From a plasmid, in assembly GCF_057098645.1 (NCBI RefSeq), contig NZ_JBXSPU010000007.1: DNA of 3,133 nt; one strand, given 5' to 3'. The translations under genes and the position numbers were made by a program. Positions within the stretch are counted from its first letter, which is position 1. Every line of letters begins with the position of its first letter. Positions 1-3,133 of the stretch are shown piece by piece. The notes under the pieces are model-generated. The model searched no databases and was not told where the DNA came from. It saw only the letters and a program-made list of their open reading frames with translations.

Positions 1-189
1 GATTGTATTGTTTATCGCATTACGCAGAGCAACCTCAATCATCTGGACAAGACAAAAAAAATCGCCAGACAGATCTTGGTAGGCAACGTATGCCCCAACC
101 TTTTCTTGATCAGTAGCGCACCCAAGAAATGTTTCATAGAAAGATAATCTTGGTACAGAAATTGAGCTAATTAAACTTGTTGTATCCAT
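1..189 (-). CDS. Abi_2 (AbiD/AbiF-type) HEPN abortive-infection protein, N-terminal 63 codons. The ORF leaves the window at position 1 and continues in frame at 3133.
   Basis: Minus-strand ATG at 189..187, with an in-frame TGA 9 nt upstream, so this is the first possible start. A weak GTGAG Shine-Dalgarno sits 5 nt upstream. My translation is MDTTSLISSISVPRLSFYETFLGCATDQEKVGAYVAYQDLSGDFFCLVQMIEVALRNAINNTI, with no stop before position 1. The pattern (S..RL..Y, then a hydrophobic stretch, then E-V-A-L-R-N-A-I) matches the N-terminal conserved block of Abi_2 family proteins as I recall it. The ORF track missed it because it has no stop inside the window. Confidence 0.8.
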   Translation of the reverse strand, partial: MDTTSLISSISVPRLSFYETFLGCATDQEKVGAYVAYQDLSGDFFCLVQMIEVALRNAINNTI

Positions 190-290
190 GAAAACTCACT
201 TATCTCTTTACTATGAATATTTTTCAGACTACCATTACAACATTCGAGGAGCAGGCGAACTACCGTTTTTCTGTGTACCTCTAGAGCGTA

Positions 291-338
291 AAATATAACA
301 AAAAAGCCCACTACAGAGTGGGCTTTTTTGTTATATTT
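291..338. terminator. Bidirectional intrinsic terminator-like hairpin with a 22-bp perfect stem
   Basis: aaatataacaaaaaagcccact (291..312) is the exact reverse complement of agtgggcttttttgttatattt (317..338), with loop acag. The GC core gcccact/agtgggc is flanked by A6 on one side and T6 on the other, so it looks like a terminator on both strands. It lies about 100 nt upstream of the abi start codon on the minus strand. Confidence 0.7.
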
Positions 339-343
339 ATCTA

Positions 344-376
344 TATGAAACAACCAGTTATAGTTATTGTTTCATA
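344..376. repeat. Second hairpin next to the terminator (10-bp perfect stem, 13-nt loop)
   Basis: tatgaaacaa (344..353) is the exact reverse complement of ttgtttcata (367..376). The loop is ccagttatagtta. The function is unknown. Confidence 0.5.
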
Positions 377-430
377 ATAAGAATTGAATACTCTTCACAA
401 TCCACAACATCAGAAAATACTTTGCTGCCA

Positions 431-458
431 ATTTACCATAACTCCCCTTACGCGCACC
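431..458 (-). other. XerC/XerD core recombination site (11-6-11 layout)
   Basis: The reverse complement of 431..458 is GGTGCGCGTAA GGGGAG TTATGGTAAAT. That gives a XerC arm, a 6-bp central region and a XerD arm identical to the ColE1 cer XerD arm. Confidence 0.85.
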
Positions 459-558
459 GCTAAAACGCGCTGAACGCGATTCTGCCGCAAACACCGCAAA
501 AAGAGATGTTTTACCCAGTGAAAACCGGAAAAATGCGTCAGGACCGTTTTCAGCTCAC

Positions 559-573
559 TGCATAGCTATGCAT
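559..573. promoter_or_regulatory. ArgR (ARG box)-like palindrome in the cer accessory region
   Basis: tgcatagctatgcat is a perfect 15-bp palindrome resembling the ColE1 cer ARG box (TGCATAGGTATTCATA). It lies about 100 bp from the XerC arm, the expected spacing. Confidence 0.55.
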
Positions 574-647
574 GAAAGTGAATGGCGATCGGTTTGGGGC
601 CTTACGGCGTTCATACCGTCTGTTTTCGACAGTTTCTCTCCGGGAAG

Positions 648-971
648 CTAATCTGCCATAAGCCTGGATAACAGGGCCCGGTGATACTCCGTAATAGCGA
701 TCAGCACCTCCGCATACTCTCTGTCCCCGACACGCTTGCCGTCGATAAAGAGTTTTTTCTGTAACGCCCCCAGTCTCATAACTTCTTTCAGTACCCGATC
801 ATCAGTCAGTGAGTTAACTTTCTTACCGAGAGCTGCCGCCCGTAAAAAACCGGAAACGGTCTTGCCGCATTCAGCAGCCCTTTTTCTGATTTCCTGGTCT
901 TCTTCTGCCGTCAGACGAACAGGGCGACTGATAGCCCGCCTGCGCGTATTACTTCCACTTCGTTTTGTCAT
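648..971 (-). CDS. mobC: MobC-family ribbon-helix-helix relaxosome accessory (mobilisation) protein, 107 aa
   Basis: This lies inside the tracked ORF 648..1061. I place the start at the ATG 971..969 (MTKRSGSNTRRRAISRPVRLTAEEDQEIRKRAAECGKTVSGFLRAAALGKKV...), which has a GGAG 9 nt upstream. The longer start would run through the oriT inverted repeat. R.V.LT.EE......A...G.S.S.FLR.AALG is the classic MobC/RHH N-terminal pattern. Confidence 0.8.
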   Translation of the reverse strand: MTKRSGSNTRRRAISRPVRLTAEEDQEIRKRAAECGKTVSGFLRAAALGKKVNSLTDDRVLKEVMRLGALQKKLFIDGKRVGDREYAEVLIAITEYHRALLSRLMAD

Positions 972-992
972 AAAACATGGCTCCGTATCTGA

Positions 993-1075
993 CATGGGGT
1001 GTCGGGGCGAAGCCCTGACCAGGGTAATTGTAATAGCGCGCATGTATGCGCGGTATAACAATTACACATCCTGTC
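993..1075. other. oriT: bom/oriT-like region. The nick site is not assigned.
   Basis: ggggtgtcggggcgaagccctgacc (about 996..1020) parallels the pBR322/pMB1 bom segment gggtgtcggggcgcagccatgaccc as I recall it. It is followed by an imperfect inverted repeat and a gtataac...ttac stretch reminiscent of the gtatactggctta nick region. It sits directly 5' of mobC, the usual oriT position. Confidence 0.5.
1024..1065. repeat. Imperfect inverted repeat in oriT (20-nt arms, 18/20 complementary, 2-nt spacer)
   Basis: gtaattgtaatagcgcgcat (1024..1043), spacer gt, atgcgcggtataacaattac (1046..1065). It is likely a relaxosome recognition hairpin and/or the mobC operator. Confidence 0.8.
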
Positions 1076-1208
1076 CTGTCAGCAAGTTCGAATTACCGAC
1101 AAAGGCACGGCAGTTTTTTGGCAGTGACAGTATTGTCAGGCAGAAATGCCCGTCAAAGAGTCAGACGACAGAATACCGGCGGCAAAACTGTCGAAAAGTG
1201 GTACGCGA

Positions 1209-1214
1209 TATAAT
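1209..1214 (+). promoter_or_regulatory. Possible -10 element of the rom promoter
   Basis: A perfect TATAAT lies about 42 nt upstream of the rom ATG. I found no convincing -35 at 16-18 bp spacing. Confidence 0.35.
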
Positions 1215-1255
1215 CACACGACGCAGATGACAGACAGAACGGAGAAAACAGAAAG

Positions 1256-1450
1256 ATGAACAAGCAGCAGCAAACCGCACTTAACATGGCAAAATTCATA
1301 AAAAGCCAGAGCCTGACGCTGCTCGAAAAACTGGACTCACTCGATGCTGATGCACAGGCCGCCATGTGTGAGAAACTGCACGAACTCGCAGAAGAACTCC
1401 AGAACAGCATACAGACACGCTTTGAATCGGAAAGTGGCACCGGGGAATAA
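1256..1450 (+). CDS. rom: Rom/Rop, RNA I-RNA II interaction modulator (copy-number control), 64 aa
   Basis: MNKQQQTALNMAKFIKSQSLTLLEKLDSLDADAQAAMCEKLHELAEELQNSIQTRF... is clearly collinear with ColE1 Rom (MTKQEKTALNMARFIRSQTLTLLEKLNELDADEQADICESLHDHADELYRSCLARF...). The size is right and the gene sits next to the ColE1-type origin. Confidence 0.95.
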   Translation: MNKQQQTALNMAKFIKSQSLTLLEKLDSLDADAQAAMCEKLHELAEELQNSIQTRFESESGTGE

Positions 1451-1691
1451 CAGTGTTCCTACACCAGACAGGATGCAGAACGATATACCGGTGCGTAAGG
1501 AGAAAATACCACATAAGGCGCTCTTCCGCTTCCTCGCTCACTAACTCGCTACGCTCGGTCGTTCGGCTGCGGCGAGCGGTATCAGCTCACTCAAAGACGG
1601 TAATGAGGTTATCCACAGAATCAGGGGATAACGCCAAAAGAAACATGTGAGCAAAAAACAAGAACCCGAAAAAGGCCGCGCCGGTGGCGTT

Positions 1692-2193
1692 TTTCCATAG
1701 GCTCCGCCCCCCTGACGAGCATCACAAAAATCGACGCTCAAGTCAGAGGTGGCGAAACCCGACAGGACTATAAAGATACCAGGCGTTTCCCCCTGATGGC
1801 TCCCTCGTGCGCTCTCCTGTTCCTGCCTTTCGGTTTACCGGTGTCATTCCGCTGTTATGGCCGCGTTATCTCATTCCACGCCTGACACTCAGTTCCGGGT
1901 AGGCAGTTCGCTCCAAGCTGGACTGTATGCACGAACCCCCCGTTCAGTCCGACTACTGCGCCTTATCCGGTAACTATCGTCTTGAGTCCAACCCGGAAAG
2001 GCACGACTTATCGCCATTGGCAGCAGCCACTGGTAACTGATTTAGAGGAGTTAGTCTTGAAGTTACGTGCCAGTTAAGGCTAAACTGGAAGAACAAGTTT
2101 TGGTGACTGCGCTCCTCTTAAGCCAGTTACCGAGGTTCAGAAACTTGCCGGTTGCTGAACCTTCGAAAAACCACCTTGCCGGGTGGTTTTTTC
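1692..2193 (-). ncRNA. RNAII: RNAII replication primer precursor
   Basis: The 5' end is inferred 7-8 nt downstream of the TAATCT -10, by analogy with pMB1 (gcaaacaaaaaaaccacc versus gaaaaaaccacc here). The 3' end is the RNA-DNA switch in the ggaaaaacgcc block, which is ggcgtttttcc on the plus strand around 1687..1696. Both ends are approximate to a few nt. Confidence 0.8.
2057..2086 (+). promoter_or_regulatory. RNAI promoter
   Basis: TTGAAG (2057..2062), an 18-nt spacer, then TAAACT (2081..2086). This is positionally equivalent to the pMB1 RNAI promoter TTGAAG...TACACT. Confidence 0.75.
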
Positions 2194-2195
2194 GT
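2093..2195 (+). ncRNA. RNAI: RNAI antisense copy-number/incompatibility RNA
   Basis: It starts at ACAAGTTTTGG (compare ACAGTATTTGG in pMB1 and ACAAGTTTTGG in p15A). Three stem-loops can be drawn: ggtgactg...cagttacc, aggttcag...ctgaacct, and the terminator ccacct-tgcc-gggtgg followed by T6. The 3' end is approximate. Confidence 0.85.
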
Positions 2196-2200
2196 TTTTA

Positions 2201-2229: not shown

Positions 2230-2299
2230 GGAAATCCGCAATTAAATTATAAAAGTTTGTGGATTAATGGAAAAACTGATGTGAATCAGCTATTTATCC

Positions 2300-2328
2300 T
2301 TAAGATTTGATGTCAGATATGGTATAAT
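2300..2328 (+). promoter_or_regulatory. Candidate sigma70 promoter with an extended -10, driving the small transcript convergent with abi
   Basis: TTAAGA (2300..2305), a 17-nt spacer, then TGgTATAAT with a perfect TATAAT at 2323..2328. It lies in AT-rich intergenic DNA between the RNAII promoter and the abi 3' end. Confidence 0.5.
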
Positions 2329-2401
2329 TAACCATTCAAATAGATGGAATAAAAAGTCAACGCTGCCATTAGAACGGCATAAGAAATAGAGGATTATGAA
2401 A

Positions 2402-2545
2402 ATGAATACTAAAGTTCTTTTTGTGAAAAAAGCCTTGAAATCAATTACTTGCGCAATTCTTTCGCTCTTACCGGCTTTAAGTCGCGCAGTAACAGAGTTA
2501 CGTAGCCTTTCGGCTGCGCGACTTAAAGCCGGTAAGAGCTTTTGA
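2402..2545 (+). CDS. Hypothetical 47-aa basic peptide (49 aa if translation starts at the ATG at 2396). Coding status is doubtful.
   Basis: AGAGGA (2388..2393) lies 8 nt upstream of the ATG at 2402. Translation: MNTKVLFVKKALKSITCAILSLLPALSRAVTELRSLSAARLKAGKSF, stop TGA at 2543..2545. Against coding: more than half the ORF is occupied by a perfect 26-bp inverted repeat. It falls below the size cutoff of the supplied ORF track. Confidence 0.25.
   Translation: MNTKVLFVKKALKSITCAILSLLPALSRAVTELRSLSAARLKAGKSF
2464..2539. repeat. Perfect 26-bp inverted repeat with a 24-nt spacer that can itself form two mini-hairpins (Y-shaped or three-way junction)
   Basis: gctcttaccggctttaagtcgcgcag (2464..2489) is the exact reverse complement of ctgcgcgacttaaagccggtaagagc (2514..2539). 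The spacer taacagagttacgtagcctttcgg contains taac-aga-gtta and (a)gcc-tttc-ggc(t). It lies 30 nt beyond the abi stop codon. Confidence 0.9.
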
Positions 2546-2569
2546 TTGTATCACATTTTTCCTTAAAAG

Positions 2570-3133
2570 TCAACCGGCTACCTTAAGCTCCCTGCACTTA
2601 ATCCTCCCTATAATCCCCATAACATACTCTATCGTGCAGCGTTCATAAAAGCGCCTATCGTGCCCAATAAACTCAATAAGTTCCTTTTTCTCGTTAGAGA
2701 CGATACTCAAGGCATTCATTAAAAAATTGAACTCTTTCAACATATTATTTATGGCTTGACTATGCGACTTGCAGTGGTGTTTTTTCCAAATAGGCTCATG
2801 GTGAAAAAGTCGATTCCTAAACAAAAGAACTTTATGAAACTCGTCAAACAACGCTTTAACCTTCATATCCCCCCCACCCAAAGGATTCTTCGCATGAGGA
2901 AATGTTTTTGCCTTGTTCTCTGGAGTCCAGATGTAGCACGGCCTTTGCGTATCCCTATATGGGGCATCTAACATATAAACCCAAAAGCCAAAGGTTAGAC
3001 GGCAAATAACATCATCATCCGTATACCTTACGCCACACTCATCTAGCGCTTTTTGTTTCGCATTTAAAACAAGATCCTGAGATTTCTTTGTTTGAGGTAT
3101 AGAGTCGTACCAAGCAGGCCCATGATTAGCTTT
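2570..3133 (-). CDS. Abi_2 (AbiD/AbiF-type) HEPN abortive-infection protein, C-terminal 187 codons plus stop. This is the continuation of 189..1 across the circular junction.
   Basis: The tracked ORF 2570..2974 stays open upstream to the window edge: 53 further stop-free codons starting exactly at 3133 (KANHGPAWYDSIPQTKKSQDLVLNAKQKALDECGVRYTDDDVICRLTFGFWVY, then MLDAPYRD...). It contains LTFGFW and FRNRLFHHEPIW (RNRLFH encoded at 2818..2801). That is the Rx4H HEPN-type motif and the RN..aHHe.iW signature typical of Abi_2. The stop codon TGA is at 2572..2570. Confidence 0.85.
   Translation of the reverse strand, partial: KANHGPAWYDSIPQTKKSQDLVLNAKQKALDECGVRYTDDDVICRLTFGFWVYMLDAPYRDTQRPCYIWTPENKAKTFPHAKNPLGGGDMKVKALFDEFHKVLLFRNRLFHHEPIWKKHHCKSHSQAINNMLKEFNFLMNALSIVSNEKKELIEFIGHDRRFYERCTIEYVMGIIGRIKCRELKVAG

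Follow-up and report, generated by a model that had tools for sequence, protein, structure and literature searches.

Does the window, a plasmid contig of 3,133 nt analysed here over its whole length (NZ_JBXSPU010000007.1, assembly GCF_057098645.1), represent a complete circular replicon, and what is the gene whose two pieces lie at its opposite ends? The splitting of this gene, termed abi here as in the initial annotation, is an artefact of the cut that opened the circle, which falls inside this gene of the phage-defence type. The whole is almost certainly explained by a full circular copy of a 3133-bp ColE1-type plasmid whose cargo gene contains the point of linearisation, with functional steps that we infer.

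Closure of the circle through the abi gene

Both pieces of abi lie on the minus strand. Translation from ATG 189 reaches position 1 after exactly 63 codons, as the initial annotation had claimed, and the reverse complement of 1..189 encodes the stop-free N-terminal 63 residues (MDTTS...AINNTI). The reverse complement of 2570..3133 encodes the C-terminal 187 residues and the terminal stop (KANHGPAWYDS...KVAG*), including the invariant HEPN motif described below; this ORF, which ends at 2570, is open back to 3133 and has a codon boundary there, again in agreement with the earlier reading. Because the lengths of the two pieces (189 and 564 nt) are both divisible by 3, the circular join is in frame and yields an ORF of 250 aa, with the sequence ...ALRNAINNTI|KANHGPAWYDS... 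at the join and neither frameshift nor stop. ATG 189 is the first possible abi start, since an in-frame stop lies two codons upstream. When the sequence was re-circularised and its ORFs were called again, the joined abi became the longest ORF, and a length of 250 codons was reached by none of 500 dinucleotide-preserving shuffles (mean 95, maximum 222).

Public databases already contain both the plasmid and the intact ORF; the closure is ordinary and already known. At least 12 PLSDB records, from Escherichia coli and Salmonella, are exactly 3133 bp long and at least 99.9% identical to the window (megablast); each matches it in two pieces and was therefore opened elsewhere on the circle. After rotation, NZ_CP116992.1, NZ_CP103519.1, and CP056790.1 show 0 mismatches to the window at the same length, and an 80-mer across 3133|1 is internal in each, which establishes the window as the circularly permuted complete replicon that had been proposed. 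In NZ_CP103519.1 and CP056790.1, the joined protein is the exact translation of an annotated 753-nt CDS and bears the name "hypothetical protein" (WP_016249639.1 / QLY95115.1).

The clipping of abi carries a practical warning: wherever a circular record has been arbitrarily cut, a gene caller that treats it as linear shortens or loses the gene at that point. For the window, the linear ORF lister returned only a 134-aa fragment starting at an internal ATG (2570..2974), and the N-terminal piece was missing. A public instance of the same artefact is RefSeq NZ_CP116992.1, in which the abi gene is clipped by the record's own start (CDS 1..746); the expectation that linear callers would split or miss this gene thus holds for both. 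PLSDB gene tables leave out start-spanning genes.

Among 5426 complete E. coli genomes, 27 carry the cargo, nearly always on plasmids of 3.1–3.2 kb. In E. coli strain 44, two chromosome assemblies contain it between two direct copies of IS26. In NZ_CM132959.1, the one of these two that was examined, the insert consists of 3133 bp plus an 8-bp target duplication and was opened near window positions 1864–1871, which are the duplicated positions. The 3133|1 junction is contiguous in this cointegrate, and therefore nothing is missing between the window ends; extra sequence at this point, which would have spoken against closure, is present neither there nor in the rotated plasmids. The insert (about 3377700..3382365) has the form of a classical IS26 cointegrate and is located between nfsB and a truncated wcaM.

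The protein is also continuous across the junction when compared with its relatives. Of 63 homologues retrieved by a database search, the close ones are 245–259 aa long; homologues elsewhere are single contiguous genes that start at the same aligned position as the window protein. In an alignment of 40 sequences, none of the 39 homologues has a gap opposite query residues 58–65, so that the alignment is gap-free across residue 63/64. The closest indel, of one residue, lies five residues downstream of the junction and is common to seven natural homologues. In the structure predicted by AlphaFold2 (pLDDT 95.2, pTM 0.90), the junction falls midway in one long helix (residues 27–67).

In principle, agreement of frame by itself has a 1-in-3 chance, and an identical abi gene is carried by two contigs from metagenomes (6.8 and 7.3 kb); both points could be taken to mean that the window is a collapsed assembly or covers just a portion of a larger replicon, with sequence missing at 3133/1 and a coincidental in-frame join. 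The probability of this is practically negligible. Twelve independent assemblies are exactly 3133 bp long, the three 0-mismatch rotations and the chromosomal cointegrate already refute a missing segment, and the homologues are contiguous genes of 245–259 aa with no indel at the junction. The two metagenome contigs (OEQX01000485.1, 7308 bp; SKEB01002086.1, 6801 bp) are about twice the plasmid length and may be concatemeric assemblies or cointegrates.

The ColE1-type backbone and the cargo border

The replication region is of the ColE1 type. RNAI, the antisense copy-number regulator, is located at 2095..2195 on the plus strand (Rfam RF00106, 95.9 bits, E 5e-18) and is the single match in the window at the Rfam gathering score (47 for this family). 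Since RNAI is on the plus strand, RNAII is on the minus strand; from what is known of ColE1, we take it to extend from about 2197 toward an origin near 1650. By analogy with the family, replication would be primed by RNAII. The rop/rom gene lies at 1256..1450 on the plus strand (Pfam PF01815 Rop, E 3e-33, profile positions 1–57 of 57). To our knowledge, ColE1 replication requires no plasmid-encoded initiator protein, and for this reason a 37-aa "replication initiation protein" annotated by PGAP inside the RNAII/ori region (WP_071790583.1, 1927..2040, plus strand) is almost certainly an annotation artefact.

A XerC/XerD-type core, indicative of a cer-like multimer resolution site, was found at 431..458 on the minus strand as a single pattern match, GGTGCGCGTAA-GGGGAG-TTATGGTAAAT, with a 6-bp central region. 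The scan, which covered the core only, used a consensus that we take to consist of half-sites separated by a central region of 6–8 bp; 0 matches are expected in shuffles, as against the one in the window.

The mobilisation features are those of a plasmid that would probably depend on a helper. A gene for a 107-aa ribbon-helix-helix relaxase accessory protein lies at 648..971 on the minus strand. It had been labelled mobC, a name that does not fit: the protein is NikA-like (Pfam PF21983, E 2.8e-18), matches the R64 NikA structure 2ba3 at E 2.4e-5, and is named "MobA" in RefSeq (WP_000166966.1). A candidate oriT inverted repeat (1024..1065; 20-nt arms, 90% complementary) fits a published description (PMC9282650). 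Thus, the single ori, cer, rom, and oriT that had been counted in the window were each recovered once, as RNAI, the Xer core, rop, and the inverted repeat. No relaxase gene is present among the annotated CDSs of the three plasmid copies, and the remaining ORFs of the window are short. MOB-suite typing in PLSDB gives "relaxase MOBF" for NZ_CP116992.1, NZ_CP103519.1, and CP056790.1, though no relaxase is encoded.

These features place the plasmid close to a nikA/oriT group of relaxase-less ColE1-like plasmids around pCERC7 and NTP16, whose oriT has 20-bp repeats (PMC9282650). The expected partner of NikA is a relaxase encoded by an I-complex conjugative plasmid, and mobilisation of NTP16 by R64 has been shown (PMC9282650). 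The window plasmid shares with the pCERC7/NTP16/pU302S group a ColE1 RNAI/Rop replicon, variable cargo beside the multimer resolution site, a NikA-like gene (by family match), and the lack of a relaxase gene, and its 20-nt inverted repeat is a candidate for the oriT of the group; it differs in carrying an Abi/HEPN gene in place of an antibiotic-resistance determinant. From knowledge of the family, it would be transferred only if an I-complex conjugative plasmid provided both relaxase and mating apparatus in trans.

Other ColE1-like plasmids share about 428..2197 of the window (PLSDB megablast). In seven PLSDB matches, homology to the backbone begins at 424–453, mostly at 428–431. This leaves about 2245..3133 plus 1..427 as the cargo, a 1.3-kb segment flanked by the RNAII promoter and the Xer site, the Xer core being one of its borders. 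Its GC content is 37.5%, compared with 50.7% for the backbone. That various segments adjoin the multimer resolution site is stated in the title of Moran and Hall (2017; cited in PMC9282650).

The abi cargo protein and its relatives

Assignment of the 250-aa protein draws on several profile and motif comparisons. The PADLOC PD-T4-5 model (PDLC04038) matches residues 4–229, spanning the junction, over profile positions 8–255 of 309 (E 6.6e-30), with 102 bits as compared with 439 for the canonical protein; the PADLOC AbiD model gives a weak match. No match was found in NCBIfam. The Pfam Abi_2 profile (PF07751) aligns over profile positions 37–118 with 19.9 bits, which is under the gathering score of 25.6, and the protein is therefore not fileable as an Abi_2 member on sequence alone; some of its homologues have a precomputed PF07751 match.

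In the family alignment of 40 sequences, E52, R56, N57, and R169-N-R-L-F-H174-H175 are invariant. R169-x4-H174 is the HEPN R-x4-H motif and falls within the R-x4-6-H definition, so that the protein qualifies as a HEPN member. In a profile search against PDB sequences, both motifs align to 8vz6, the AbiF/AbiFr/RCd22 structure; sequence identity between PbAbiF and the window protein is about 16–20%. The abi label of the initial annotation is thus supported by the PADLOC PD-T4-5 match, the HEPN motif, and the AbiF fold match, but its Abi_2 component is not, with Pfam Abi_2 below gathering. On the evidence of these profiles, the protein is a HEPN protein of the AbiD/AbiF/PD-T4-5 superfamily, and it is most likely an RNase toxin that acts in abortive infection. 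Such a toxin would abort phage infection and may also stabilise the plasmid. The lactococcal proteins AbiD, AbiD1, and AbiF (PF07751) belong to the same superfamily, a likeness reflected in the weak Pfam and PADLOC AbiD matches.

PD-T4-5 is a plasmid-borne, single-gene abortive-infection system that is distantly related to AbiF/D (Vassallo et al., 2022; PMC9519451). For comparison, WP_017880353.1 (304 aa, 439 bits on the PADLOC model) was used as a proxy for the reference RCQ99930.1. The canonical WP_017880353.1 gene is also carried as cargo by a small E. coli plasmid of the ColE1 type, but the window protein is shorter (250 aa versus 304–314 aa) and only about 24% identical; given this identity and the difference between 102 and 439 bits, it represents a subfamily separate from PD-T4-5. 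In that plasmid, NZ_CP086548.1 (4440 bp, ColRNAI), the canonical gene (667..1581) comes directly after the terminator of RNAI. It seems that AbiF/D-like genes are repeatedly carried by small ColE1 plasmids.

The annotation of the 250-aa ORF as only a "hypothetical protein" and its sub-threshold Pfam match would also suit a decayed, non-functional passenger gene with no role in defence. Such decay is very improbable, because intact ORFs of 100% identity are present in plasmids of human, pig, chicken, dog, turkey, and water origin, all 40 family members keep the catalytic motif unchanged, and the fold is predicted with high confidence. Under the preferred reading as a HEPN toxin, the label "hypothetical" covers a probable abortive-infection toxin on a tiny plasmid of mobilisable type, whose hosts are E. 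coli and Salmonella of human, livestock, and water origin. The points of interest are this unannotated defence-type toxin on a widespread 3.1-kb plasmid and the candidate small RNA on the opposite strand beside it.

A perfect 26-bp inverted repeat with a 24-nt loop (2464..2539; repeat scan, fold z-score −8.3) lies just downstream of the abi stop and forms a long stem capped by two small hairpins. A 47-aa "hypothetical protein" (WP_152918943.1, about 2401..2545, plus strand) is annotated across it. The repeat is restricted to this plasmid lineage and is possibly a terminator or insulator. As a candidate partner RNA or antitoxin, the repeat together with the 47-aa ORF (2396..2545) was rejected, since neither is conserved downstream of abi homologues and the arrangement is confined to the lineage.

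A candidate small RNA beside the abi start

AbiF-family toxins are neutralised by a cognate cis-encoded ncRNA (PMC12373285; PMC12737573), and the flanks of the abi homologues were therefore compared. Between a GC-rich hairpin and the abi start lies a non-coding block whose conservation exceeds that of the protein. The element occurs beside homologues whose proteins are 39–67% identical to the window protein where measured, on other small plasmids as well as on chromosomes (Aeromonas, Arsukibacterium, Lonepinella). It is linked to abi at all close homologue loci having upstream sequence, and the favoured strand is opposite to that of the gene.

On this plus strand, three features follow one another in the window: a sigma-70-like promoter (207..235; −35 TTTACT at 207–212, 17-nt spacer, −10 TACCAT at 230–235), a conserved irregular hairpin that would form the core of a small RNA (244..285; from covariation, RNAalifold, and minimum-energy folding), and an intrinsic terminator hairpin (293..336; 22-nt perfect arms, terminator-like in the scan). 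The promoter of the window is weak (8 of 12) and was missed by a stricter promoter scan; an equivalent promoter is present in all 12 abi-linked relatives, with scores of 8–10 of 12 and a −10 box ending 8–14 nt before the hairpin. The terminator is bidirectional in form (A-run, GC stem, T-run), and relatives have an equivalent hairpin at the same position. Given the order promoter–hairpin–terminator on the plus strand, the "terminator" only appears to sit upstream of abi. By these sequence features, the most likely product of the unit is a small RNA of about 90 nt (~242..333, plus strand).

The hairpin was assessed in a structure alignment of 15 distinct but related sequences with 13 pairs. Five pairs are changed on both sides when read on the plus strand (GC/AU, AU/CG/UA, CG/GC/UA, and others). 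The covariation score was reached by none of 500 shuffles, a control that overstates significance because the 15 sequences are related, and the score collapsed in slid controls. RNAalifold agrees with the hand-drawn structure on the helices, and the minimum-energy fold of the single window sequence contains them as well. A covariance model (R1) scores 70.4 bits at 237..295 of the window; among the loci searched, it found the element beside close relatives only and none beside more distant homologues. In Rfam, searched with the window at gathering scores and at E up to 10, RNAI was the only relevant match and the abiF motif RF03085 was absent; at E up to 1, seven related loci yielded neither RF03085 nor any other relevant family. 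The weak Rfam matches are terminator look-alikes.

A block located 55–100 bp from the abi start codon is also where the abi promoter must be, and its conserved TTTAC and TATNAT boxes are promoter-like. Both observations are compatible with a DNA control region, either overlapping divergent promoters or an abi operator, from which no RNA is made. This reading is improbable: compensatory changes at five pairs and lineage-specific base pairs are unexpected for protein-binding DNA, the helices are kept while the loop length varies from 3 to 13 nt, and orphan copies occur in phage contigs without abi.

The strand of the candidate RNA is a separate matter. In known AbiF systems, the ncRNA lies upstream of the gene on the same strand (PMC12373285), and the element could correspondingly be read on the abi strand as a cis 5′-leader ncRNA, like that of AbiF/RCd22, that is co-transcribed with the gene. 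On that strand, 91.3% of the alignment cells are paired, a value reached by 0 of 500 shuffles, and two U-G cells favour it; nearly all of its unpaired cells are A-C. On the plus strand, 96.9% of the cells are paired, thirteen A-C or C-A mismatches of the abi strand becoming G-U pairs. Moreover, a leader on the abi strand would have the terminator before the element, leaving no room for a promoter, whereas promoter, hairpin, and terminator are found in this order on the opposite strand in 12 of 12 loci, and the two phage copies described below are co-oriented with local genes or tRNAs on the opposite strand only. A leader RNA is thus unlikely, although it retains some weight. The favoured plus-strand RNA differs from the AbiFr of AbiF (8vz6) in that it lacks the Rfam abiF motif RF03085 and in that it lies on the opposite strand with its own predicted promoter and terminator, rather than forming a 5′ leader. 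The Arsukibacterium locus has two tandem hairpins before one terminator, which recall the two abiF motifs of RCd22.

If transcribed from the plus strand, the small RNA would be ended by the terminator, which would also shield abi from transcription arriving from cer. The RNA would restrain the toxin either by binding the protein, in a type III-like manner as AbiFr does with AbiF, or by interfering with abi transcription. We infer its role, which could be that of a protein-binding antitoxin, an antisense regulator, or an agent of promoter interference. If the RNA is real and controls the toxin, the AbiF RNA-antitoxin paradigm (AbiF being a proposed Cas13 ancestor) would be extended to a new RNA and a new layout.

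Homologues of abi also occur in relatives of Pasteurella. Among more distant homologues (32–40% identity), a clade of Vibrio, Pseudoalteromonas, and Rheinheimera and one of Burkholderiales have upstream non-coding blocks of their own; these are about 110 nt long, highly conserved, and predicted to form hairpins. Some of these blocks share short motifs with the window element (AAAAC...GTTCG...GCTC). At the canonical PD-T4-5-type gene in NZ_CP086548.1, inspection by eye revealed no similar upstream element.

Copies of the hairpin that are separate from abi were found in phage contigs. A DNA-pattern scan of viral contigs gave 11 matches, of which nine are apparently chance occurrences in coding sequence and two, in IMG/VR contigs with no abi homologue nearby, are convincing. 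The first orphan hairpin (L170, 1906..1945) lies in a 341-kb contig and is co-oriented with the flanking ORFs. The second (L171, 5231..5270) lies in a 153-kb contig between tRNA-Pro and tRNA-Gln, inside an array of eight tRNAs with which it is co-oriented on the favoured strand. Phage-encoded pseudo-ToxI provides an analogue for the speculative idea that the orphan hairpins may be decoy RNAs that disarm the toxin. Tentatively, the locus may thus be an undescribed two-part module of a HEPN RNase and an opposite-strand RNA of about 90 nt that serves as antitoxin or regulator, with the phage orphan hairpins as decoys, a possibility to which we give less than even weight; if true, phage-encoded RNA decoys would also be indicated.

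Two other elements beside abi were considered and set aside. The plus-strand ORF 188..298 (36 aa) does not behave as a conserved peptide, because the frame over the block differs between the window and a relative (L004) and the loop indels are not multiples of three. An AlpA/HTH_17-like gene is not an obligatory partner, since the window plasmid lacks it; many other small plasmids have such a gene (~90–97 aa) directly before the terminator–element–abi unit.
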